From the NCBI GenBank assembly GCA_038314665.1, contig GCA_038314665.1_3677.1: a DNA stretch of 64,000 nucleotides; one strand, 5' to 3'. The notes beneath the pieces were generated by a model. That model did not search any database. It was not told the DNA's origin and was given only the letters and a program-made list of their open reading frames with translations. Within the stretch, counting starts at the first letter, position 1; each line of letters starts with the position of its first letter. Shown here one piece after another: positions 1-54,848 of this stretch. Source of the stretch: a phage. Both the position numbers and the translations under genes were made by a program.

Positions 1-10
1 AAAAAAATTA

Positions 11-38
11 TTGACACGCTGCAAAATTAAAGTAAACT
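11..38 (+). promoter_or_regulatory. sigma70-like promoter (TTGACA-N16-TAAACT)
   Basis: TTGACA at 11-16, TAAACT at 33-38, followed by GC hairpin 49-67 and RBS before the ATG at 87. Confidence 0.5.
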
Positions 39-86
39 AGACACAAAAGGCGGGAATGTTTCCCGCCAACACAAAGGAAAAAGATC

Positions 87-482
87 ATGAATAAGAACGT
101 ACGCCGCATCATGAACGAACTGGCAAACGATGAAAAAATTATTGATATGCATTTGGTCAACATTTGCCGCCGTTGTGTAACATATAACAACCGCGCCGCA
201 AAAGCGCGTGAGATGAACGCAAAAGGCACCTTAAAGCCCTTTCAGGTGGTTGTAAAATCTATAGCTAATGCAGCAGGCCAGGCGCATGACCACAACAACG
301 AGAGCACTAATATTGATCCGTCTTACGTAATGAAACGGATCCGGACTTGCAAGAATAAAGAGCAGGTGTATAACGTCATAGATTGGCTGGACTCCATGGG
401 CGATGTGGTTTATAATAGGTTTTCTGCAGCTATCGAGATCCAGCTTGACAGACTGGACGGGAAAGTACTGAAAACTTACTGA
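87..482 (+). CDS. hypothetical early protein (131 aa)
   Basis: ORF with upstream promoter and AAAGGAAAAAG RBS; no recognisable domain. Confidence 0.6.
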   Translation: MNKNVRRIMNELANDEKIIDMHLVNICRRCVTYNNRAAKAREMNAKGTLKPFQVVVKSIANAAGQAHDHNNESTNIDPSYVMKRIRTCKNKEQVYNVIDWLDSMGDVVYNRFSAAIEIQLDRLDGKVLKTY

Positions 483-530
483 GTTTATTTTTAGATGGCC
501 TTGACTCCAGGGCCATCAATAAAGTAAACT
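483..530 (+). repeat. recurrent 48-bp intergenic element, copy 1 (palindrome GATGGCC-N10-GGCCATC around TTGACT, then TAAACT)
   Basis: near-identical copies at 1102-1149 and 4816-4866, degenerate copy at 1437-1487; each starts right after a stop codon. Confidence 0.7.
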
Positions 531-561
531 AACCACAGTTGAGCGGAAAGGGGGCTTAAAG

Positions 562-681
562 ATGAGTACTACACGCCAGCACACAAAGGTAACTATTATC
601 GTTTGCATCATTGGTTACATCCTGGCGCAAATGTTGATGGGTAGCGCCAACGGTATCGCAAAATTTTTCTTAAACTTTTAA
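562..681 (+). CDS. small hydrophobic peptide (39 aa)
   Basis: ATG at 562 after AAGGGGG RBS; hydrophobic core IIVCIIGYILAQMLMG; below the ORF-track size cutoff. Confidence 0.35.
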   Translation: MSTTRQHTKVTIIVCIIGYILAQMLMGSANGIAKFFLNF

Positions 682-709
682 TTGACAAGCTAACTTAGAT
701 CAGTATACT
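682..709 (+). promoter_or_regulatory. sigma70-like promoter (TTGACA-N16-TATACT)
   Basis: TTGACA 682-687, TATACT 704-709, hairpin GGGAAAACTTCCC and RBS before ATG 760. Confidence 0.6.
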
Positions 710-759
710 AAACACATAAACGGGAAAACTTCCCAGAACACACAAAAGGAGAAAACACC

Positions 760-1101
760 ATGACTACTATGACCGCCGCAGAAAAAGCTATGCAGATCGC
801 CGCGCTGAAAAAACAGATCGCAGACCTTGAGAACAAGATCGATAACTTTGAAATCGACGAGGACAAGTACGACGAAAACTATGATGAATGGTTAGACGAG
901 ATCTACGGCGAAATTATGATCGGAAACATTTCTTTTCTTCCGTCGCGTATCCTCAAGGAGCTAGATCCTATCGCTTACCGCTGCGGATTTAGCGACTACA
1001 TCGACAGCCTGGATATTGAGGACGATGAAGAATACCAGGAATTGCAGACAGAGCTTGAAGAAGTGAAAGAAGAGCTTTCAGAGCTGGAAGAAAACGAGTA
1101 A
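760..1101 (+). CDS. hypothetical highly acidic early protein (113 aa)
   Basis: ORF with RBS AAAGGAGAAAAC; Asp/Glu-rich, coiled-coil-like N-terminus. Confidence 0.6.
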   Translation: MTTMTAAEKAMQIAALKKQIADLENKIDNFEIDEDKYDENYDEWLDEIYGEIMIGNISFLPSRILKELDPIAYRCGFSDYIDSLDIEDDEEYQELQTELEEVKEELSELEENE

Positions 1102-1149
1102 ATTTATTTTTAGATGGCCTTGACTCCAGGGCCATCAATAAAGTAAACT
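1102..1149 (+). repeat. recurrent 48-bp intergenic element, copy 2
   Basis: AATTTATTTTTAGATGGCCTTGACTCCAGGGCCATCAATAAAGTAAACT. Confidence 0.7.
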
Positions 1150-1190
1150 TTATACCGTTAACACTGAACTAATACAGAGGAGTTAAAACC

Positions 1191-1436
1191 ATGGCAGCAC
1201 TAATCACCAAATATTACGCCCCTACCAACACCAAAAGCGCCCGTATCATGGTAAAAGGCTTCGGACGTAAAAAGGTTTACACCTGGGATTATTCCCTAGA
1301 CATGGAAGACAACTACACCAACGCGATGACCGATTTTATTAATGAACTAAATAAGCAGATCTTGACAAATTATAAAGTGACAGATATTGCTTATATAGGT
1401 GAAGGCGGGATCTGTTTTGTAGGCATTGTGAAATAG
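1191..1436 (+). CDS. hypothetical protein (81 aa)
   Basis: ORF with GAGGAG RBS. Confidence 0.55.
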   Translation: MAALITKYYAPTNTKSARIMVKGFGRKKVYTWDYSLDMEDNYTNAMTDFINELNKQILTNYKVTDIAYIGEGGICFVGIVK

Positions 1437-1487
1437 TTATTTTTTCGGTGGCCCTGGCTGCAGGACCATCTATAAAGATAATTTACT
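1437..1487 (+). repeat. degenerate copy of the recurrent intergenic element
   Basis: TTATTTTTTCGGTGGCCCTGGCTGCAGGACCATCTATAAAGATAATTTACT; same position after a stop codon, palindrome altered. Confidence 0.45.
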
Positions 1488-1511
1488 AACACCATGAAAG
1501 GAGAAAGTAAC

Positions 1512-1865
1512 ATGATCAGCGGGGCTAGTTTTATTATTGGCGCTATTGCTACGGCTTTAATTGTAAACAAGATCCAGGATAAAAAGGAAAGAGGAAGTAC
1601 CGCCCTTGCAGAATATCCATTTTGGACATTCAACGATAACGAAGATTATATTATAAAGTATAAAAATAAAGAAGGTGACCAAGTAACACCGCGACCGATC
1701 CCGGCTTACAAGATGCAGGAAACACTATACCGCCTGGAAGCGGGTGGCGCAAAAATTGTAGACTTTTGGGGATACGATCACACAGATCAGGAAGCTATAA
1801 AGCGACGTATCAGGGCTATTCAGGCCAATATTGAAGTTAGCAAGGGGGGAATATATGAAGATTAA
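1512..1865 (+). CDS. hypothetical protein with N-terminal transmembrane segment (117 aa)
   Basis: start moved to the ATG at 1512, which has an AAAGGAGA RBS 7 nt upstream (ORF track starts at 1494); N-terminus ISGASFIIGAIATALIV. Confidence 0.5.
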   Translation: MISGASFIIGAIATALIVNKIQDKKERGSTALAEYPFWTFNDNEDYIIKYKNKEGDQVTPRPIPAYKMQETLYRLEAGGAKIVDFWGYDHTDQEAIKRRIRAIQANIEVSKGGIYED

Positions 1866-2052
1866 TTTTGAGAAAATTGTAAAGCGATCTCATGATTCCG
1901 AAGAGCTGCCGGAACGCCGCCAGCGTAACAATAAACTGAATAAGCCAAAAAGATTTGGGAAGATCTGGCGGAATCATTATGATCGTAAATTGCCGGGCCT
2001 CCTTTTGGAACGTGAACGGCAGGCGGAACGATACCGCCACAAAGGCAACTAA
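1855..2052 (+). CDS. hypothetical basic protein (65 aa)
   Basis: ATG at 1855 after GGGGGGAA; ORF track gives a TTG start at 1831; followed by a terminator. Confidence 0.4.
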   Translation: MKINFEKIVKRSHDSEELPERRQRNNKLNKPKRFGKIWRNHYDRKLPGLLLERERQAERYRHKGN

Positions 2053-2062
2053 CAACCACAAC

Positions 2063-2091
2063 GCCCCGCCATCGTGCGGGGCTTTTTATTT
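2063..2091 (+). terminator. rho-independent terminator
   Basis: GCCCCGCC-ATCGT-GCGGGGC hairpin followed by TTTTTATTT. Confidence 0.7.
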
Positions 2092-2212
2092 CTACCGTAC
2101 GAATAGCGCCCCTGGTTGGCCCCACAACGCCCTAAAAGCCCCCTACCCATGCAATCCCATTTCTTAACCTGAAAACATCGTCAAAGGCTGTTTTAAAGCG
2201 TTAAAAATATTG

Positions 2213-2240
2213 TTGACATCTAAAATATTCTAGATATACT
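2213..2240 (+). promoter_or_regulatory. sigma70-like promoter (TTGACA-N16-TATACT)
   Basis: hexamers at 2213-2218 and 2235-2240, upstream of the CDS at 2276. Confidence 0.6.
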
Positions 2241-2275
2241 AATCACATCAAAGCGAGAAGTAAGGAGTAAACGAC

Positions 2276-2536
2276 ATGCGTAAATTGAAAAATTTTGATA
2301 AAGTCGATGTTGTCCTAAATAGTTTTTACTACTGCAATAATAAAGCCGTTTGGTGGCGTGATAGTTCCACCGATAAGGTTAAGGCGCGCTTTCTCCAGGG
2401 GCACTGGCAAGGCCGCCCAGTGATTAAAATCATGGGGCAATTGGTAGCGTTTAAAAATTGCCGCCGTGTTGATGACGTTGAGGAGATTTTAAACATTTTG
2501 CGCCACAATAATTTAAAAAATAGTGTTGACAAGTAA
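2276..2536 (+). CDS. hypothetical protein (86 aa)
   Basis: ORF with AAGGAG RBS. Confidence 0.55.
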   Translation: MRKLKNFDKVDVVLNSFYYCNNKAVWWRDSSTDKVKARFLQGHWQGRPVIKIMGQLVAFKNCRRVDDVEEILNILRHNNLKNSVDK

Positions 2537-2553
2537 ATCTCAATAAGTATAAT
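2526..2553 (+). promoter_or_regulatory. sigma70-like promoter (TTGACA-N16-TATAAT)
   Basis: consensus hexamers; followed by hairpin GGCGGGAAAACTTCCCGCC (2564-2582) and RBS. Confidence 0.65.
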
Positions 2554-2610
2554 TAAACACACAGGCGGGAAAACTTCCCGCCACTAACAAAGAAAACAGG
2601 AGAAAATATC

Positions 2611-3234
2611 ATGACCACCGTTAACATTACCACAGGTTACAATTTATCTTTCGACGTGCTGACCGACGAACAAAAAGAAAAAGCCATTGAAATGGTCCGC
2701 GAAAGAGAAGAACACAGCGGGGATGACTTTTTTGCAGAAAGTGTAATTGAACACTACAAAGAACAAGTTTTTCCAGAGTACGGCCTTGAAGATACCGAAG
2801 TACGTTGGTCCGGCTTTTGGTGCCAGGGTGACGGCGCGTCAATCAGTGCTGAAAACGTGGATTTAGAAAAATTCTTGCGTAAAGTCAAGGCCCTGACCAA
2901 GTTCCGATCAATTCGTCACTTGTTCGGTACAATGCGCGATGGCGAACTATCAGCCAGTGTTGAACGTATCCCGTTTAGCCATTATCACCACGAAAACACA
3001 ATAGGAGGGTGCATCGATACTAATTGGCTAGACCTGACCACCAAGCAAGAGGACAAAGTTGAAGAGCTGGAAGAGCTGATCACCGAGACGGTACGGGAGC
3101 TATCCCGCAAGGTTTACGTAGACCTGGAGGAGGCCTATCTAGAACAGTTCACTACCGAAAACCTGATCGGCCTTATTGAGGCCAATGATTGGCGGTTTGA
3201 TGTGGATGAATATGGGGAGATGAGTTTTTCATAA
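2611..3234 (+). CDS. hypothetical acidic protein (207 aa)
   Basis: ORF with RBS ACAGGAGAAAA; acidic; no confident family assignment. Confidence 0.6.
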   Translation: MTTVNITTGYNLSFDVLTDEQKEKAIEMVREREEHSGDDFFAESVIEHYKEQVFPEYGLEDTEVRWSGFWCQGDGASISAENVDLEKFLRKVKALTKFRSIRHLFGTMRDGELSASVERIPFSHYHHENTIGGCIDTNWLDLTTKQEDKVEELEELITETVRELSRKVYVDLEEAYLEQFTTENLIGLIEANDWRFDVDEYGEMSFS

Positions 3235-3241
3235 ATAAAGT

Positions 3242-3269
3242 GTTGCAATAATCTAAAAACCTGCTATAT
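3242..3269 (+). promoter_or_regulatory. sigma70-like promoter (TTGCAA-N16-TATATT)
   Basis: followed by hairpin GGGGCAAACGTCTTGCCCC and RBS. Confidence 0.5.
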
Positions 3270-3323
3270 TAAAAACTCAAGGGGCAAACGTCTTGCCCCA
3301 CACAAAACAAAGAGGATAACATC

Positions 3324-3704
3324 ATGAAAAACACTACCAAGGCTATTGACACCGTTATGTTTAACCTGGTTACATTCCGTGAAGATATGAAAGATCTTCC
3401 GCGTGAAACAGTGTGCGACCATATCGAAAACTATCGCAAACTGATCAAAGAGTTGCCTTTAAAACGTGATCAATATGCGGCTAACGCCATGCTTAATGCC
3501 ATGATCAAAAAGATGATCCAGTGTGATTTAACTCTGGCCTATGACTATGCGGGTGGTCGTTTTGCAGTATACAATCAGCCCGTGCCCGGTATGGGCACCA
3601 CCGAAGAATTGCACGCGCTCAATCTAAAACAAGACGTGTGGGATAGTATGCCCCGCGTGGTGGTGTGGGCAGAAAGCGGAAAGATTTACGGCGATAATTT
3701 TTAA
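3324..3704 (+). CDS. hypothetical protein (126 aa)
   Basis: ORF with AAGAGGA RBS. Confidence 0.6.
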   Translation: MKNTTKAIDTVMFNLVTFREDMKDLPRETVCDHIENYRKLIKELPLKRDQYAANAMLNAMIKKMIQCDLTLAYDYAGGRFAVYNQPVPGMGTTEELHALNLKQDVWDSMPRVVVWAESGKIYGDNF

Positions 3705-3768
3705 TCAGGTAACAGGCGGCATATTTGCCGCCTTATTGTTAAACAGAACTGCAAAAGAGGTACATAGA

Positions 3769-4140
3769 ATGGAATTTATTATTTTGGCTGTATTGGTTGC
3801 CTTGTTTAACGCCTGGATCGCTGGCAAGATGGGCAGGTCCGCCTTTTTATGGTTTATTATATCTATTTTCCTGGGGGTGGTTGCAACTATTGTATTGGTT
3901 ATCCTTGCAATTGTTGACAAGGGGAATAATAGAAAGGGTAAAGTATTTTCAGACCTGTACGACGCTCAAACGTTTGTCAACGCCTATTATAGTGATCTTC
4001 CAGTCTCCCTACGCTGCAGCCTGGCACAACAGGTTTTTGATGAGGCTAAAACCAGAGATCAAGCCCATGAGATATGTTTAACTGAGGCGGATCGCCTATT
4101 TGAGAGGAATAGAAAATATGTGGGCCAACCGTTTAAATAA
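3769..4140 (+). CDS. small membrane protein, two predicted TM helices (123 aa)
   Basis: start taken at the ATG with AGAGG RBS (MEFIILAVLVALF...); ORF track begins at 3736. Confidence 0.5.
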   Translation: MEFIILAVLVALFNAWIAGKMGRSAFLWFIISIFLGVVATIVLVILAIVDKGNNRKGKVFSDLYDAQTFVNAYYSDLPVSLRCSLAQQVFDEAKTRDQAHEICLTEADRLFERNRKYVGQPFK

Positions 4141-4363
4141 TGCCACGTTAATTAATCCCTTTAGTGAAGATTTGAAGCCAGCCGCCTGGCGTGACGGATT
4201 CAATAACGAACGCTTTATTTTCAGGCCTGATCTTGAGGAATTTTATAACAATGGATCGAACAACAGCGGAGATAATTTTTCTTGTGGTGTGTGTCGTGAT
4301 AGGACTCCTGGGGGCCATTGTAAACCACGTCACTACTACCAGAAGGAAAGGGGGAGACGATGA
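4118..4363 (+). CDS. hypothetical Asn-rich protein (81 aa), frame uncertain
   Basis: ATG after GAGAGGAATAG; an alternative overlapping frame (4251-4376) encodes a TM peptide; cannot be resolved by eye. Confidence 0.3.
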   Translation: MWANRLNNATLINPFSEDLKPAAWRDGFNNERFIFRPDLEEFYNNGSNNSGDNFSCGVCRDRTPGGHCKPRHYYQKERGRR

Positions 4364-4479
4364 CAACCAAGGATAAGCCCAGCACCGATAAGGTGCGCCG
4401 GGTTATGGTATGGCTGGAGATCATCGCCCTTGAAATATTGTTAGGCGTAGGGATGTACTTTATCGCTGTAAGTAACTAA
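4360..4479 (+). CDS. small membrane peptide (39 aa)
   Basis: ATG after AGGAAAGGGGGAG; hydrophobic WLEIIALEILLGVGMYFIAV; followed by a terminator. Confidence 0.4.
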   Translation: MTTKDKPSTDKVRRVMVWLEIIALEILLGVGMYFIAVSN

Positions 4480-4484
4480 GAACG

Positions 4485-4512
4485 GCCCCCGATCATGGGG
4501 GCTTATCTTTTT
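4485..4512 (+). terminator. rho-independent terminator
   Basis: GCCCCCGATCATGGGGGC hairpin followed by TTATCTTTTT. Confidence 0.7.
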
Positions 4513-4614
4513 AAAAATTTTTCTTCCGTGGTGTTGCAATCCGGTCCGGAATGTGGATAATAACAATCAACGGGGAGCTAATCCCCACCACAAAAACCAG
4601 AAAGGAGAAACAAA

Positions 4615-4815
4615 ATGAGCAACAATATCCGCGTTATTAACTTCAAAAAAGAAGAAAAAATTGCCGTGCTGATTGACGGTCAAGAAATCTTCAAGGGCGA
4701 CTATGAAGATCATCAAACGGCGATTAGTATCACTCGCGTGATTGGTTACCATAATTTTTACCCCCAAGGCGCTGAGGCAGCGGTTAAACGAATCAAAGAG
4801 ATTGTAGGCCTGTAA
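4615..4815 (+). CDS. hypothetical protein (66 aa)
   Basis: ORF with AAAGGAGAAAC RBS. Confidence 0.55.
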   Translation: MSNNIRVINFKKEEKIAVLIDGQEIFKGDYEDHQTAISITRVIGYHNFYPQGAEAAVKRIKEIVGL

Positions 4816-4866
4816 AATTTATTTTTAGATGGCCTTGACTCCAGGGCCATCAATAAAGTAAATTTA
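4816..4866 (+). repeat. recurrent 48-bp intergenic element, copy 4
   Basis: AATTTATTTTTAGATGGCCTTGACTCCAGGGCCATCAATAAAGTAAAT. Confidence 0.7.
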
Positions 4867-4899
4867 AACCCTGTTAAAATACCACGCAGTTAACAAGGA

Positions 4900-5208
4900 G
4901 TGATAGACATGTTTATCCAGGCTAATAATCTTTATTTCTTTGATGGTCAGATCGTAGATGGTGTGGAAGTGGAGATCACCGGGTGCCCTGGCGGTCAGGC
5001 TATGACTTTTCGGAATAATGCCTTTAATGATTCTCATATCGTTATGAGAATGGAAGTTACGAAGCTGGATGACAAGAAAACACTTATTGACTATTCTGTG
5101 AAAGATCATCCAGACTACCACATGATCTATGGTGATTTGTGCATTGTTGACCGTGACAAGGTGAGCGGCATTGTGATCGCTATTGTGAACGATGTTTTCT
5201 CAAACTAA
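4900..5208 (+). CDS. hypothetical protein (102 aa)
   Basis: ORF with AAGGAG RBS. Confidence 0.55.
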   Translation: MIDMFIQANNLYFFDGQIVDGVEVEITGCPGGQAMTFRNNAFNDSHIVMRMEVTKLDDKKTLIDYSVKDHPDYHMIYGDLCIVDRDKVSGIVIAIVNDVFSN

Positions 5209-5225
5209 TTTCAACAGGTGATTTT

Positions 5226-5576
5226 ATGAAAGTTAAATTATATTACCTTAATGAGCTTAACCCCCTTGCCCAGGTCCACGCCCTAGCTAATACCTTGATT
5301 TGTGAGAAATCTGTATATTGTGTTGAGCTTAACGCCATGCGTGAACGTCTCAAAGGTGGTTACTTTAACATCCATGCTGCAATCAACGGCCTGAATATGG
5401 AATTTATCCGTTTACGTAACAGCCGCCGGAATCTGGCAAGAATGGAACAAGATCCGGCCCACCTTCGTAAGCTGGTTATTGAAAATCATCTGATGTTTAA
5501 TGCCGAGGGTGATTATTACCATTTTCACCGCAAACGCTGGTACCGTGGCGGCAATACAGGCAAGAATGCAAAATAA
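5226..5576 (+). CDS. hypothetical basic protein (116 aa)
   Basis: ORF 18 nt after the previous stop. Confidence 0.5.
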   Translation: MKVKLYYLNELNPLAQVHALANTLICEKSVYCVELNAMRERLKGGYFNIHAAINGLNMEFIRLRNSRRNLARMEQDPAHLRKLVIENHLMFNAEGDYYHFHRKRWYRGGNTGKNAK

Positions 5577-5613
5577 GGCCCCAGGCAGGGCCTACAGCGA
5601 CCTAAACACTAGC

Positions 5614-5645
5614 AGGCTATGCGATTGCATAGCCTTTATTGTTTT
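5614..5645 (+). terminator. rho-independent terminator
   Basis: AGGCTATGC-GATT-GCATAGCCT hairpin followed by TTATTGTTTT. Confidence 0.6.
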
Positions 5646-5777
5646 GACGTTACAACGGCCCTAAGGCGCTTAAAAAATTTTTAAAGAAGTACTTGCATCA
5701 TTCCCGACAATATGGATAATAAGAGTTGTCGAGGGGGAGGCCCCCAATCATTGACCAGATAGATAGGAGTTAAAATC

Positions 5778-6062
5778 ATGGCTATTGTTACCGCTGGCGA
5801 TGTAGTAGAAATGGAAGCAAAATACTTAAAAGCGGGTATGCATATCCTACGGAATGATCAAGAGTTATTATTAACGATGGTTGACTATAATCCCGGCCAG
5901 GATTATCCAAGCATCGACTACTTTTTTGAGTATGTTAATGAAGAGTTGAAAGAGGATGAGGCCTACTGCGGTGAGTTCTGCAACTTCTTTTGTCCTGATG
6001 AGGTTGTAAAGGTTATTTATCAACCTGGCGTAGCTTTCCCGCTGCACGCTATCAATAAATAA
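5778..6062 (+). CDS. hypothetical protein (94 aa)
   Basis: ORF with TAGGAG RBS; promoter-like TTGCAT...TATGGATAAT upstream. Confidence 0.55.
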   Translation: MAIVTAGDVVEMEAKYLKAGMHILRNDQELLLTMVDYNPGQDYPSIDYFFEYVNEELKEDEAYCGEFCNFFCPDEVVKVIYQPGVAFPLHAINK

Positions 6063-6126
6063 ACCTGGCGGGGCCGAAAAGGCCCCTACAGCATAAAATT
6101 ATGAAAGTAAAGAGAGGTAAATCATC

Positions 6127-6360
6127 ATGATGGAACAAATTAAACGCACCGAGGCTATTAATGGCAATGTGATCTATTTTGTTAGCAATAACGAGAAAGG
6201 CGTACCATATGCGGCGGTAATAGTACAGCCTGACGGTGATTATTGGTTTACTGTATACGGATCTTATTCTTTCGGGCGTCCGGTGCATGATAGAATTTTG
6301 AAAGTAGCGAACCCTACCGGGAAGAATATCACAGCAGAAAAATTTTTTGAAAATAGTTGA
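6127..6360 (+). CDS. hypothetical protein (77 aa)
   Basis: ORF with AGAGAGG RBS. Confidence 0.5.
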   Translation: MMEQIKRTEAINGNVIYFVSNNEKGVPYAAVIVQPDGDYWFTVYGSYSFGRPVHDRILKVANPTGKNITAEKFFENS

Positions 6361-6384
6361 CATGACCATATAAAACTGTAATAT
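6357..6384 (+). promoter_or_regulatory. sigma70-like promoter (TTGACA-N16-TAATAT)
   Basis: followed by hairpin GGGGCCCAAGCCCC and RBS before the ATG at 6436. Confidence 0.55.
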
Positions 6385-6435
6385 ATAAATCAAAGAGGGG
6401 CCCAAGCCCCACCAACCACAAAGAGGATAAAAATC

Positions 6436-6615
6436 ATGGCTATTATTGCAAAGACCGAGATCGTAGGCTTAGATTCTATTCTCCTCGCATATGAGGAAGC
6501 TATAGAAATGTATGTGGTTTCCTATGGTGAGTATATCCGTGAATATGAATCTATTGATCTAGCTTTTGAATGTTATATTCGCCAGGTTAATAAAGCGTAC
6601 GATGATTATCGTTAA
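6436..6615 (+). CDS. hypothetical protein (59 aa)
   Basis: ATG at 6436 with the same leader architecture (CACAAAGAGGATAAAAATC-ATG); below the ORF-track cutoff. Confidence 0.5.
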   Translation: MAIIAKTEIVGLDSILLAYEEAIEMYVVSYGEYIREYESIDLAFECYIRQVNKAYDDYR

Positions 6616-6707
6616 AATAGTTTGACAACAAACAACCATCTAACAAAGCATAATACATAAGGTGGTAGAATGATCCGCCACCCCGGAACAAAGAAGAGGT
6701 AAACACC

Positions 6708-6953
6708 ATGAAAAGCAATAAAGGTTATAACGGTTACAAAAACAAAACTCATTGGAATGTAAGCCTTTGGATTAATAACGATGAGTCATTGTACCGGTTG
6801 GCCCAAGGCTTTATTAACGCTAATGCTAATCGTAATGATGCGGCGCGGGATATGATGCTTTTTCTGGAGCTAACCGGACAAGATAAGACCCCGGACGGCT
6901 TCAAGTACAGCACTACGGCGATCCGTGCCGCGATGGTTGGAATGAAACACTAA
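6708..6953 (+). CDS. hypothetical protein (81 aa)
   Basis: ORF with promoter TTGACA...CATAAT, hairpin GGTGG...CCACC and RBS. Confidence 0.55.
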   Translation: MKSNKGYNGYKNKTHWNVSLWINNDESLYRLAQGFINANANRNDAARDMMLFLELTGQDKTPDGFKYSTTAIRAAMVGMKH

Positions 6954-7144
6954 AAGCACATAGCCGCCTTACCCTGGGGCTGTGGTAGCGGCCCCATGAA
7001 TAAGGTTACTAACAGAAGAGAATAAACACCATAAAACAGAAATTAATCGATGCAGTGATCTTGATTATTGCCCTGGGTATTGGCCTGATTGCAACCATGT
7101 CTAATATGATCTTGTCTTCCAACGGTATCGGGTGAGGTTGGCAA

Positions 7145-8258: not shown

Positions 8259-8476
8259 ATAAAAAGTGTTTTGGTACTGATTTTGGGGTTGACTTGTTCG
8301 GCCCCTTTTGCTATTCTTATTAAACGGGCGGCACTTGGAAACAGGTGGAGACAATCACCGGGCCTGCCTGTCATATAAGAACTATAAAAACCGTTGACAT
8401 CTGCCATGGGGTGGGGTAACATTTATCTTGAAGGGGCAAAGGTGCCCACACAACAACCAGAAGAGAGGAAAACACT

Positions 8477-9685: not shown

Positions 9686-10292
9686 TCTGTATTTCTCCTA
9701 CCACAAACGGCCCCACCTGGCAAGTGGAATAATTGACTAGCCATCAATCCCACACACTGTACAAACATACATGTAAAATAACTATTGCATAATTTTTCAT
9801 TGTGTGGTAGCAGGGCCATTTTTACCCGTTTTCTCTCTCAAAATTGCACGTAATGCCGCTATTGCACAAAATTTAACCTGATGCATATCTTCAATAGCTT
9901 GTCAACAACTAAAAATCTTTATAAGTCATACACTTACACACTCACAAAAGCGTGTTCTACGTGAAAAATCGAGTATAACTATAGCCGCCAGATCTCAGAA
10001 TTTACGTACGTTCACCATTCTATAGTCTGCTAAGTATTTATTCCAACCATAGAATAATGGAATAGTCAATACCTGCATAAAATAATTATTCGTATAAACT
10101 GCATAACATAAATCAGCTTAGGTGTCAACATTTTTCGTAAACAGCCTGAAATTATCACGGTGAGTTATCATAAACAGAGAAATCTTTAGTCGTCTAATGT
10201 TTACTGTACATTACTATACTTACTGGAATCATTAGATGACTAAGAGAAAGATAAGAAATAATTAACAATACAATTATTTTATATGTAACAAT

Positions 10293-10483
10293 AAGGCAAC
10301 TATGCAAACGAATGGCATGGCGCGACGGAGTCGCGACATAATATAAAAGCAGTAACCATCACCCCCGTGATAGTTTGTCTGCAATCTATTAATCAGATCA
10401 TAGTTGCCTTGTATTTAGTTAATCATGACATAACAAGCAAGGCAACTATAGATCTGCTAATAGTTGCCCTGCTTTTATATTAT
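10293..10483. repeat. nested inverted-repeat / hairpin cluster
   Basis: GGCAACTAT and ATAGTTGCC alternate four times; 15-bp inverted repeat ATAATATAAAAGCAG / CTGCTTTTATATTAT; palindromes CGCGAC..GTCGCG and GTGACTAAAGGTCAC; flanked by 20-bp direct repeats ATGCAAACGAATGGCATGGC (10303) and ATGCAAACGAATGTCATGGC (10609). Confidence 0.6.
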
Positions 10484-10629
10484 GTCATAGAAACACCCGA
10501 AGGGGTGACTAAAGGTCACCTGGCATAGCCAGTGAAAGATTATTAACCTGCTAATTGTCAGCTTATTGGCTGTTAGCTTGTCAATTGTTAACTTGTTAAT
10601 TGTTATCATGCAAACGAATGTCATGGCTT

Positions 10630-10800
10630 ATCATTTTTGTGTAAACAGTCAATCATGTAAATGATAAGTATGTGAACAGTTATCCATGTAAACTATTAGA
10701 TATGTAAACTATCGGTTATGTAAACAGTAAGAGCGTGAACAGTAAAGGGAGTGAATAGTAATAGCGTGAATAGTGACAGCGTAAACAGTCAGGCATGTCA
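10630..10800. repeat. tandem degenerate short repeats (ATGTAAAC / GTGAACAGT / GTGAATAGT units)
   Basis: at least ten units, roughly 11-14 bp period, visible by eye; non-coding. Confidence 0.6.
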
Positions 10801-11363
10801 ATTATGTTTAATGTGCCCAGTATGTCAAAGGTGTCATGTTATGTCACTATTGTGTCAGACAAGTTTTTCTCCTCTTTGTCAAGTGCTGCATGAAAAATTT
10901 ACAATCTGGTATGGTAGCATTTTTGCGGCCCTGTTTACATTCAGTTGTGTATGTATAATCCTTGTTGTGCGGGCGTTTGGACGTCTAGATGGTTGGAAGT
11001 CTGCAGGTCAATATCTAATCTATCGGCTGTTAACTATATCCCACACAAATAGTAAGAAATATAATTGTTATATGCGTAAACAGTAACTCATGTTATCAAT
11101 CCCTGTATGTATCGCCAGTGGTGCGCATAATGGGTATTATGTTAAATTGCCCGTAATGATAACTATTCTCACAATGATAGGTATTCTCATTCAATCCCAC
11201 AAGATAGGTTGCAAATGTTGTGCCACTGTGTGAACGGCCTCACCTATTAATTTGCCACACTGCCCCGATATTTGAGAATTGTTATAAGAATGAGAAGTAT
11301 TCCCATTTCGTCCGCCTGGCAGCACTCCAGTCGCTACCGCTTATGACAGGGCAGAGCTAGACC

Positions 11364-11512
11364 CTCTTCAGATATTTCTGGCTGACTCTTCAGGTCTGTG
11401 TGGGAAAAGCCAATCTCTCCGGCGGCGGGGAGGGGGTCAATTAAAAAATTTATGTGGTGTATGAAGCGCTCTTCAGGTAAGGCATGTATTATGGGATGAA
11501 ACCCTCTTCAGG
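11364..11512. repeat. cluster of CTCTTCAGG motifs
   Basis: copies at 11364, 11386, 11469 and 11504, with further copies at 11894 and 12544; interleaved G-rich GGCGGGGAGGGGGT (11421) and CCCGGCGGGGCAGGGG (11566). Confidence 0.5.
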
Positions 11513-51370: not shown

Positions 51371-51444
51371 ACCAGTAAAAACTTAAATATCTGTACTATA
51401 AGTATTTGTATGTTTTATGTTCACCATGGAACAGAAACTATTAA

Positions 51445-51526
51445 CTGTCCGTGATACGGACACTACTGCCCGTCACGCGGACACATCTGTCCGTAATACG
51501 GACACTAACTGTCCGTGATACGGACA
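51445..51526. repeat. four tandem 21-bp palindromic iterons (CTGTCCGT-N3-ACGGACAC)
   Basis: units at 51445, 51466, 51487 and 51508, followed by an AT-rich palindromic stretch to about 51660. Confidence 0.7.
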
Positions 51527-52030
51527 CATAAAGAATATAACTAAAATAACTAAATAATAAAAAATAAAAGATCTAGTACTTATGGTACTAAGTACATATA
51601 CTTAACTTATGTAGAATATACTAGATCCTAAGTACCATGTTTTAAATTTATTACTTTCTATAGGTAGTGTCGGCCCTTCATTGGCACTCGCCTACGAGGG
51701 GCGAGATGCCGGGCCTCCATAGTGCACACAATAACAGAAGTGCATACATGCAGGTCTGTTAACATGTGTGGGAGCGAAGCGATAGCGCAGGCCAAAGGCC
51801 GAGCACTAATGTGGACCACCGACGAAAGCTTGCCAGCGCCGTAAGGAGTCGGTTGAGAGCCTCCAGCGCGAGTTTGGATAAAGTTTATGTGTGGAAACGG
51901 ACAATGAGGCCCCTAAATCGCTCCACAGCCATATAAACTATACCAAGTAAGGCAATCGCACCAGTTTGATAGAAAAGCTCGTTACAAAGCGATACAGTGA
52001 GTTTTTCTATAACTTGAAGAGGAGGCAGCT

Positions 52031-53908: not shown

Positions 53909-53983
53909 GCCCTGTTAGCTTAGTGGATAAAGCAGCGGCCTTCTAAGCCGTTGACACTGGTTCGAGTCCAGTACGGGGTGCCA
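53909..53983 (+). tRNA. tRNA-Arg (anticodon TCT)
   Basis: manual cloverleaf: acceptor GCCCTGT/ACGGGGT, anticodon loop CTTCTAA, T-loop TTCGAGT, encoded CCA. Confidence 0.75.
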
Positions 53984-54113
53984 AGTTCTTTTTAATGTAG
54001 CTTACTTTAGCAGAGTAAATCTTCGGCAAGTGGCGGTAACCACTTTACCGATACCTCATAGTTAGTGGTGAGAACACTAGCTATTTTAAAAAGAATTTAA
54101 ATATTAGTATTTA

Positions 54114-54201
54114 GGTGAGTTAATTCCGTAGGGGTAGCGGGGCAGACTGTAAATCTGTTATCATTGCGATTCGGGTGGTTCGACTCCATCACTCACCACC
54201 A
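54114..54201 (+). tRNA. tRNA-Tyr (anticodon GTA)
   Basis: acceptor GGTGAGT/ACTCACC, anticodon loop CTGTAAA, long variable arm, CCA. Confidence 0.8.
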
Positions 54202-54315
54202 AATTTATATTTTTAAATGCATAAATCATACAGATAATGGCATTGATATTTATCGTCGTTTATACTAGTCACTAACTGCTCGAAAATCAGTGTCATTATC
54301 AGTATAATTTATAAA

Positions 54316-54406
54316 GGAGGGTAGGGAGCAATGGTGCTCAAGCGGTCTTGAAAACCGTCCCATTGAGGATGACTCGATGATGGTTCGATTCCATTACTCT
54401 CCGCCA
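54316..54406 (+). tRNA. tRNA-Ser (anticodon TGA)
   Basis: acceptor GGAGGGT/ACTCTCC, anticodon loop CTTGAAA, long variable arm, CCA. Confidence 0.75.
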
Positions 54407-54504
54407 CATTGTTGACCTTGTAATTAAGCGAAAGCCGGAAGCAGAACCGGATTATCAAATGTTACAGTCGTCATCGCCGACTAGCAACATGGTCAACATA
54501 CTGA

Positions 54505-54603
54505 GCTAGGTAAGCCCTTTGGCAAGGGCGAGGATTTTTAATCCTGAAAATAGACGAGGTAGTCGTTGAATACATAGGTGGTTCGATTCCACCGCCTAGC
54601 ACC
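54505..54603 (+). tRNA. atypical tRNA-like gene (99 nt), anticodon possibly TTT
   Basis: acceptor GCTAGGT/GCCTAGC and T-arm GGTGG-TTCGATT-CCACC are clear; loop TTTTTAA on a short stem; about 30 nt between anticodon arm and T-arm. Confidence 0.4.
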
Positions 54604-54608
54604 TTTTT

Positions 54609-54684
54609 GCTGATGTAGCACAATTGGCAGTGCAATTGATTTGTAATCAATAGGTTGCAGGTTCAAGTCCTGCCATCAGCACCA
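54609..54684 (+). tRNA. tRNA-Thr (anticodon TGT)
   Basis: acceptor GCTGATG/CATCAGC, anticodon loop TTTGTAA, T-loop TTCAAGT, CCA. Confidence 0.8.
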
Positions 54685-54685
54685 A

Positions 54686-54760
54686 GGCCCTGTAGCTGGA
54701 AGGTTCAAGCAAGCGACTCATAATCGCCAGACGGTGGTTCAATTCCACCCAGGGCCACCA
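54686..54760 (+). tRNA. tRNA-Met (anticodon CAT; elongator Met or Ile2 type)
   Basis: acceptor GGCCCTG/CAGGGCC, anticodon loop CTCATAA, CCA. Confidence 0.7.
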
Positions 54761-54771
54761 AATGGTAAATA

Positions 54772-54848
54772 CTCCGCGTAGCTCAGCTTGGTAGAGCGCC
54801 TGATTTGGGATCAGGAGGTCGAGTGTTCGAATCACTCCGTGGAGACCA
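54772..54848 (+). tRNA. tRNA-Pro (anticodon TGG)
   Basis: acceptor CTCCGCG/CGTGGAG with C1-G72, anticodon loop TTTGGGA, T-loop TTCGAAT, CCA. Confidence 0.8.

Follow-up and report, generated by a model that had tools for sequence, protein, structure and literature searches.

A two-part RNA hairpin repeated after stop codons in the early region of an rV5-like coliphage is a candidate RNase III processing signal

The 64,000-nt stretch of phage DNA analysed here (contig GCA_038314665.1_3677.1 of assembly GCA_038314665.1; hereafter, the window) contains a short element that recurs between the small genes near its left end, and the locus raises the question of whether this repeat is a signal in DNA or in RNA. 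The initial annotation had offered two readings, a promoter whose -35 box is overlaid by an operator palindrome and an RNA hairpin processing site. Our comparative analysis indicated that the best explanation of the element is primarily a cis-acting RNA structure in polycistronic early mRNA, not a DNA signal. The first 6 kb of the window showed 90-97% identity to more than 110 complete genomes of rV5-like coliphages (97% to Pr121LW), and by this measure the window is a Vequintavirus, an rV5-like Escherichia coli myovirus with a genome of approximately 136 kb. The surroundings of the element are a run of small plus-strand genes. Upstream of each of these genes is a strong sigma-70 promoter, a tightly coupled preceding gene, or the element.

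The 24-nt core GATGGCCTTGACTCCAGGGCCATC occurred exactly at positions 494-517, 1113-1136, and 4828-4851 of the plus strand, with zero occurrences expected in shuffled sequences. A 46-nt string was found without mismatch at 485-530 and 1104-1149 and with one mismatch (TAAATT for TAAACT) at 4819-4864, where chance would again give none. A fourth copy, matched at 1434-1484, was 73% identical to the others, and neither nhmmer nor a covariance model run with its filters off found a further copy in the 64 kb. The three near-identical copies and one degenerate copy described earlier were thus recovered; we refer to them in order of position as c1 to c4, c3 being the diverged copy and c1, c2, and c4 the canonical ones. 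Their placement after stop codons was also as described: TGA 480-482 (c1), TAA 1099-1101 (c2), TAG 1434-1436 (c3), and TAA 4813-4815 (c4) all touch or overlap the first paired base of the structure described below, the TGA of c1 overlapping it. Every copy is flanked by a stop codon on its 5' side and a ribosome-binding site on its 3' side; it lies 25-44 nt before the start codon and leaves the ribosome-binding site free. Each copy has a promoter upstream, with no terminator-like site between. Minus-strand open reading frames (ORFs) of 29-49 amino acids that run across the copies were dismissed as mechanical.

Folding of the plus-strand transcript gave a two-part hairpin of approximately 20 bp. 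A G+C-rich upper stem of 10 bp (GAUGGCCUUG/CAGGGCCAUC, including one U.G pair) is closed by a tetraloop and joined through an asymmetric 2x3 internal loop (UA on the 5' side, AAU on the 3' side) to an A+U lower stem (UUUAUUUU/AAAGUAAA, with one U.G pair), which can be extended to 10 bp. The 7-bp inverted repeat noted earlier is therefore real but undercounted, since the inner stem has 10 bp with its U.G pair and the A+T flanks, TTTATTTT and AAAGTAAA, pair as well, forming a second helix. The TTGACT hexamer corresponds to the last three pairs of the upper stem and the first three bases of the loop, and TAAACT is the 3' strand of the lower stem. In single-sequence folds, the canonical copies had folding free energies (dG) of -22 to -26 kcal/mol and z-scores of about -6.

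In c1 (482-530; dG -26 kcal/mol, z -5.8; 84 bits with the covariance model), the lower stem is formed by 482-491 and 521-530, the internal loop by 492-493 (UA) and 518-520 (AAU), the upper stem by 494-503 and 508-517, and the tetraloop by 504-507 (ACUC). The corresponding parts of c2 (1101-1149; dG -22.5, z -6.0; 84.8 bits) are 1101-1110/1140-1149, 1111-1112 and 1137-1139, 1113-1122/1127-1136, and 1123-1126. Those of c4 (4816-4864; dG -23.6, z -6.1; 82.2 bits) are 4816-4825/4855-4864, 4826-4827 and 4852-4854, 4828-4837/4842-4851, and 4838-4841. The single mismatch of c4 lies within its lower stem, where U replaces C on the 3' strand and the 5' partner is A rather than G. The diverged c3 (1435-1483; dG -17.9, z -2.9; 70.4 bits) has a lower stem of 1435-1444/1474-1483, an internal loop of 1445-1446 (UC) and 1471-1473 (UAU), an upper stem of 1447-1456/1461-1470, and a loop of 1457-1460 (GCUG). 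Its upper stem contains one C.A mismatch that is present in this window only, and its orthologues fold at -20 to -29 kcal/mol. All of these features are on the plus strand.

To examine conservation, the region was taken from 14 relatives with 83-97% identity, giving 15 genomes with the window. These yielded 55 copies, 41 of them distinct, and the 39 distinct copies without indels were aligned. RNAalifold predicted the same 20 pairs from this alignment independently. Standard pairs occupied 98.5% of the 780 pair cells (39 copies x 20 pairs, a count that includes inherited changes) versus 35-56% when the 3' partner was slid by one to three columns, and none of 500 shuffles reached the observed pairing or covariation score. 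Double changes were found in four pairs of the lower stem. At columns 11:51 and 12:50, the canonical copies have U-A/A-U where c3 has A-U/U-A; among c3 orthologues, 11:51 passes through A-U, G.U, and G-C, and 9:53 changes from U-A to C-G. The G-C of c1 at column pair 8:54 gives way to A-U in c4, as it also does in one c1 orthologue. In the upper stem, four pairs showed changes between Watson-Crick and wobble pairs only.

The unpaired parts were conserved in form more than in sequence. The internal loop was 2x3 in all 39 copies, one 2x4 variant apart, and the U at its 3' edge was invariant. Positions 3 and 4 of the tetraloop varied freely (ACUC, ACGC, ACUU, ACAC, and ACAU), and the loops of c3 were GCUG, GUAG, GUAA, GUUG, and GUGG. 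The c1 copy of the most distant relative (L004, 83% identical) contains 1-nt insertions in both the loop and the internal loop and still folds at -22.6 kcal/mol; the hairpins of this genome were 86-92% identical versus 51-82% for the adjacent downstream spacers. In the Gotham genome (L005), 5 nt (GGGCC) of the 3' arm of c1 (5199-5258) are gone, which destroys the upper stem and leaves a dG of -9.8; either at least one deposited genome can do without c1, or the assembly is in error.

The fold was also specific to one strand. Sense strands folded at a mean of -23.5 kcal/mol and antisense strands at -14.2, approximately 9 kcal/mol worse on average, and the sense strand was the better in 39 of 39 copies; c3 orthologues typically folded at -27 in the sense and -9 in the antisense direction. 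This bias arises because several pairs, invariant or recurrent, are U.G, which leaves the antisense strand and the duplex without the symmetry, and it therefore indicates a constraint on RNA rather than on duplex DNA. Correspondingly, the DNA dyad is broken by U.G or G.U at 1 of 10 arm positions in the canonical copies and at 2 of 10 in c3. The U.G pairs and the weaker antisense fold argue against a DNA operator or a cruciform and for an mRNA signal. Taken together, the element is very probably a selected sense-strand RNA structure with some post-transcriptional function.

How far does this leave room for the signals in DNA that the same nucleotides resemble? The hexamers TTGACT and TAAACT, 18 nt apart, are present as described in c1 and c2 (c4 has TAAATT), and TAAACT does recur in the first promoter of the window (11-38, TTGACA-16 nt-TAAACT), with which the element shares AAAGTAAACT. 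Read as a sigma-70 promoter with a T-rich upstream sequence, perhaps regulated through the palindrome and with a hairpin that is incidental or an operator, c1, c2, and c4 pass a consensus scan with 9 of 12 matches; every long intergenic gap of the region holds either a clear promoter or this element; and the Gotham record carries PhagePromoter predictions on c2, c3, and c4. However, a score of 9/12 is also reached by many chance hits inside genes (26 sites in the scan versus 16.8 expected), whereas the clear promoters of the region score 10-12 of 12 with a spacer of 16 nt and carry a 5' stem-loop just downstream, which the element lacks. In place of the -35 hexamer, c3 has CTGGCT or CTGGTA in 15 of 15 genomes and yet folds as well or better, and in c1 of L004 the spacer is stretched to 20 nt while the hairpin is intact. 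The bases of the "-10" covary with bases 35-40 nt upstream, which would be meaningless for a promoter; the downstream spacers, where +1 and the leader would be expected, are poorly conserved (51-82%); and the element is absent from the promoter list that the rV5 authors compiled with MEME and visual inspection. We consider a promoter an unlikely identity for the element, and weak promoter activity would explain none of the conservation pattern. A promoter with an operator over its -35 box is disfavored by the 9/12 score, the missing -35 of c3, the 20-nt spacer of L004, and the G.T positions in the arms of c3. The related proposal that the element places several early genes under one regulator is weakened as well, since the factor acting in trans is probably a housekeeping nuclease of the host rather than a dedicated regulator.

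A weak intrinsic terminator or attenuator is hardly probable at all. The Murica record annotates c3 and c4 as "terminator", and a few U residues follow the lower stem in c2, c3, and c4. However, none of the four copies passed a terminator scan on either strand, and the same scan did find the true terminators of the region at 2063-2082, 3714-3733, and 4484-4503. The G+C stem is followed by AAUAAAG rather than a U tract, the full hairpin has an A+U-rich base, AACCACAG stands directly after c1, and the terminator list of the rV5 authors does not include the element. Across approximately 120 deposited genomes, the sites are annotated inconsistently, as promoter, as terminator, or not at all.

A separate class of stem-loops accompanies the clear promoters. 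Short G+C stem-loops, exemplified by GGCGGGAAUGUUUCCCGCC, were found within approximately 10 nt of nearly every clear early sigma-70 promoter (49-67, 721-735, 2564-2582, 3281-3299, 4570-4588, 6397-6410, and 8431-8447), with ACACA-rich flanks followed by a ribosome-binding site; they make up the repeat families D5, D6, and D16. They look like 5'-terminal stabilizing hairpins. On the minus strand they score as terminators, and they might also stop antisense transcription.

For the element itself, we propose that it is a processing signal for host RNase III, cut once, that leaves the upstream message with a 3' hairpin and frees the leader of the downstream one; judged from the architecture of the hairpin, this has about an even chance of being correct. 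It also corresponds to the second reading of the initial annotation, an RNA hairpin processing site, which is favored by the covariation, the G.U-compatible changes, the sense-strand specificity, and the T7-like architecture. The copies would be transcribed within operons by read-through from the sigma-70 promoters at 11-38, 682-709, and 4534-4561, and the hairpin would form in the resulting early mRNA. Host RNase III would then bind the hairpin and cleave it once, in the 3' strand of the internal loop and directly after its invariant U (predicted cuts after U520 in c1, U1139 in c2, U1473 in c3, and U4854 in c4, plus strand). The upstream cistron would be left with a protective 3' hairpin and the downstream cistron would be freed with a leader that is short, A-rich, and unstructured and contains its ribosome-binding site, so that the stability and translation of neighboring early genes would be uncoupled.

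Published substrate rules agree with this proposal in part. RNase III requires approximately two helical turns, with at least 11 bp from the cut to the loop, and the loop sequence is irrelevant; the distal box has U-A and then U.G next to the loop, and position 2 of the proximal box must be A-U or U-A, G-C at this position being an antideterminant (Pertzev and Nicholson, PMC1540722). Internal loops confine cutting to one strand and leave protective 3' hairpins (PMC1540722, PMC3867540). With 10 bp and 7-10 bp stacked across the 2x3 internal loop, the element has the helix length of the two-turn rule (PMC1540722). The canonical copies have U27-A34 and U26.G35 at the place of the distal box, G-C and C-G at the middle box, and A20-U41 at position 2 of the proximal box, in a mapping that we rebuilt from the text of PMC1540722 rather than from its figure.

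Support came from phage T7. When 7.8 kb of T7 was searched unfiltered with the covariance model of the element, four hits were obtained at E-values up to 10, the top three being the hairpins of R1, R1.1, and R0.3, in register. We take R0.3, R0.5, R1, R1.1, and R1.3, the early hairpins of T7, to be RNase III sites after Dunn and Studier (1983), and likewise assume from that work cuts at 3138, 5887, 1468, and the other T7 coordinates, which would fall after the U in AAU|A for R1 and in UAU|G for R1.1 and R0.5. Our search found no open paper that lists these coordinates, and they are absent from the feature tables shown of two T7 records. The coincidence of the hits with three of the five known sites is telling, which cannot be said of each E-value alone.

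Several observations weigh against RNase III processing. The T7 hits are singly not significant (E 1.2-4.9). Positions 1 and 3 of the proximal box are U-A and G-C, versus G-C and A-U in the minimal-substrate consensus. In c3, the distal-box U.G pair is absent and position 2 of the proximal box is G.U, and these rules would make c3 a poorer substrate, although it is well conserved. The two outermost pairs of the lower stem are unpaired in 11 of 78 cells, and this loose retention leaves a firm lower stem of 7-8 bp; moreover, we estimate approximately eight independent covariation events, much of the variation separating c3 from the other copies or being inherited. The element does contain a passable sigma-70 motif, annotated as a promoter in three copies by the software behind one record, and c1, c2, and c4 may have stayed nearly identical because of sequence-specific recognition instead of gene conversion. 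Finally, our literature search found no transcriptome, RNA-end mapping, or rnc host-dependence data for Vequintavirus.

The main rival is a hairpin that is never cut, and we regard it as possible but not likely. Such a structure would act in the long untranslated gaps of 75-93 nt as a stabilizer or barrier, against 3'-to-5' exonucleases after cleavage downstream, against RNase E scanning, or against Rho loading, in the manner of repetitive extragenic palindromic (REP) sequences, and would give differing half-lives upstream and downstream. All of the structural evidence fits it equally well, its placement right after stop codons without a U tract suits a stabilizer, and c3 keeps the structure without the U.G pair of the distal box. 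However, a simple barrier needs neither an asymmetric internal loop of fixed size, nor a weak A+U lower stem, nor an invariant U at the edge of the loop; these features and the match in register with T7 are the requirements of a single-cut RNase III signal. It is very unlikely that the hairpin is instead a binding site for a phage RNA-binding protein, as a translational operator or the target of a phage endoribonuclease that co-regulates the four downstream genes. Many nearby early genes have no known function, and c1, c2, and c4 are 96-100% identical across approximately 120 genomes, beyond what the structure requires; but the loop nucleotides vary freely, c3 differs at 27% of positions with its fold kept, the hairpin lies too far upstream to occlude the ribosome-binding sites, and the identity of the copies is explained by gene conversion, for which shared rare variants and a recombinational deletion provide evidence.

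This deletion concerns a 619-bp unit (485-1103) that extends between equivalent points of c1 and c2 and contains a 39-amino-acid ORF (562-681), a promoter (682-709), and a 113-amino-acid ORF (760-1101), all on the plus strand. The unit is precisely missing in three sampled genomes (phiWec189, ECP32, and one IMG/VR contig), each of which carries a single hybrid copy with the left flank of c1 and the right flank of c2. In L006 and in L013, rare loop variants were common to the copies within the genome, which suggests gene conversion and thereby accounts for the near-identity of c1, c2, and c4. The near-identical copies serve as substrates for homologous recombination that deletes, and presumably inserts, the cassette between them; such a joint explains the presence/absence polymorphism of two early genes in the genus. 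That the repeats persist solely by shuffling cassettes, with no role in expression, is highly improbable. The precise deletion, the concerted evolution of the copies, and their location among small, variable early genes restricted to the genus would all be expected of such a module. However, recombination needs identity rather than pairing and leaves the compensatory changes and the G.U strand bias unexplained, and the fold of c3 is retained although an identity of 73% is too low for efficient recombination.

The element was present in approximately 121 phage records, all of them Vequintavirus, and on the sequences searched it is restricted to this genus. Of these records, 17 (MG0656xx, host C. 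jejuni) are labeled Campylobacter phages; they are 94-97% identical to the present phage over the region, and their names probably reflect contamination or mislabeling. A search of 5,426 complete E. coli genomes for a host origin gave no match, and in pattern scans of IMG/VR and metagenomes the element occurred only on Vequintavirus contigs, the remaining matches being attributable to chance. With Rfam at permissive thresholds, the best overlap in 1-7000 of the window was the rhtB small RNA, with 23 bits versus a gathering score of 55 and E = 2. Our literature search found no paper that describes the element. The flanking genes, before c1 and after c4, are confined to Vequintavirus, whereas homologues of the gene that separates c2 from c3 exist in unrelated phages, where synteny is absent. 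ORF 1855-2052, in the same operon as c2 and c3, belongs to the T7 gp1.1 family (PF08200, E 9.5e-11, above the curated cutoff), which the Murica record likewise notes; the other neighboring genes have no known function.

Other hairpins of related appearance were seen. A second long hairpin at 6961-7011 (dG -25.3, no U tract) has the same design and is non-homologous; its 10-bp upper stem, with two U.G pairs, is joined through an internal loop to a lower stem of 6 bp. It begins 8 nt past the stop codon of ORF 6708-6953, with which it forms a cassette found in only approximately 30 records; this ORF is shared with phi92-like, Phapecoctavirus, and jumbo phages. On IMG/VR contigs akin to Pseudomonas syringae phages, intergenic hairpins of approximately 18 bp (L018 5744-5763, L023 6521-6540, and L025 2408-2427; dG -26 to -28, z about -5) lie just upstream of ribosome-binding sites and share the apical stem CUGGCCUUGA...CAGGGCCAG with the element, down to a U.G pair in the equivalent position. 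In a collection of this size, the likeness may be due to chance or convergence.

Elsewhere in the window, the stretch from approximately 9800 to 11400 is rich in repeats and contains no convincing ORFs. It has at least six copies of GT(A/G)AACAGT-type units spaced 15-16 and 31 nt apart (10640-11115), long inverted repeats (one matching at 18 of 18 positions, 10335-10352 with 10469-10486), and, at 10393-10488, hairpins of -28 to -31 kcal/mol. The stretch is probably the "non-coding" box of the rV5 map and has the look of an iteron-type replication origin. Three tandem-like copies of TAACTGTCCGTGATACGGACAC at 51442-51527 each form a small hairpin (GTCCGT..ACGGAC), with a local fold of -30 kcal/mol. 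A cluster of six tRNA genes at 53909-54848 (Arg-tct, Ser-tga, Thr-tgt, Met-cat, and Pro-tgg) is accompanied by one oddity, called with a four-base anticodon at 54505-54603.

How, then, does the element compare with known systems? REP and BIME (bacterial interspersed mosaic element) sequences, such as those of malE-malF, are repeated imperfect palindromes that follow stop codons in operons, lack a U tract, and block 3' exonucleases. The element likewise is repeated, imperfectly palindromic, and located after stop codons inside operons without a U tract; unlike them, it shows no similarity to the E. coli chromosome, and its internal loop and T7-like register are not REP features. Another parallel is offered by the promoter-early stem-loops (PeSLs) of T4-like phages, reportedly treated by Arbiol et al. 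in 2010. PeSLs combine a short terminator-like stem-loop with a following near-consensus promoter with an N17 spacer and number dozens per genome (Comeau et al. 2014, PMC4122927). Like the element, they are repeated intergenic motifs of 50-60 bp with a stem-loop and sigma-70-like hexamers, lying among small, variable early genes with repeat-bounded insertions and deletions. In the present element, by contrast, the hexamers lie inside a long two-part hairpin with an 18-nt spacer and match the consensus weakly, the copies number only four, c3 does not conserve the promoter part, and the selection detected acts on RNA pairing. The parallel is thus one of consequence, not of anatomy. It is decidedly unlikely that the element unites all three roles, as a weak sigma-70 promoter on DNA, an RNase III site on read-through RNA, and a recombination joint for cassettes; if it does, it would be a Vequintavirus counterpart of the PeSLs of T4, with promoter and RNA signal on the same nucleotides.

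The closest resemblance is to the early intergenic hairpins of T7. Those have G+C-rich upper stems of 9-10 bp with U.G pairs, as compared with 10 bp in the element, and both have loops of no fixed sequence (4-5 nt in T7) and an asymmetric internal loop, which in the centroid fold of R1 is UA/AAU, identical to that of the element. The lower stems of T7 are A+U-rich, 5-6 bp long, and start at the upstream stop codon, and those of the element, at 7-10 bp, have the same placement. The U-A and U.G pairs of the distal box and the A-U pair at position 2 of the proximal box occupy the same places in R1.1 as in the canonical copies, and both phages have several sequence-related copies within one early region. 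However, sequence homology is not detectable and the lineages are unrelated, the present phage being a 136-kb myovirus without a phage RNA polymerase. The internal loop of the element is smaller than those of R1.1 and R0.5, positions 1 and 3 of its proximal box differ from the consensus, and its copies resemble one another much more closely than the T7 sites do. Moreover, the T7 sites are RNase III cleavage signals, whereas cleavage of the element is a prediction. To our knowledge, characterized examples of RNase III hairpins with the T7 design come so far mainly from T7-like phages and lambda. On its architecture, the element is best filed as a new candidate of the T7-type RNA processing signal, an ordinary kind of device, and the 49-nt module is a candidate insulator or processing part for phage engineering. 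If this assignment is correct, a large myovirus without its own RNA polymerase would dissect its early operons by the host RNase III strategy of T7.

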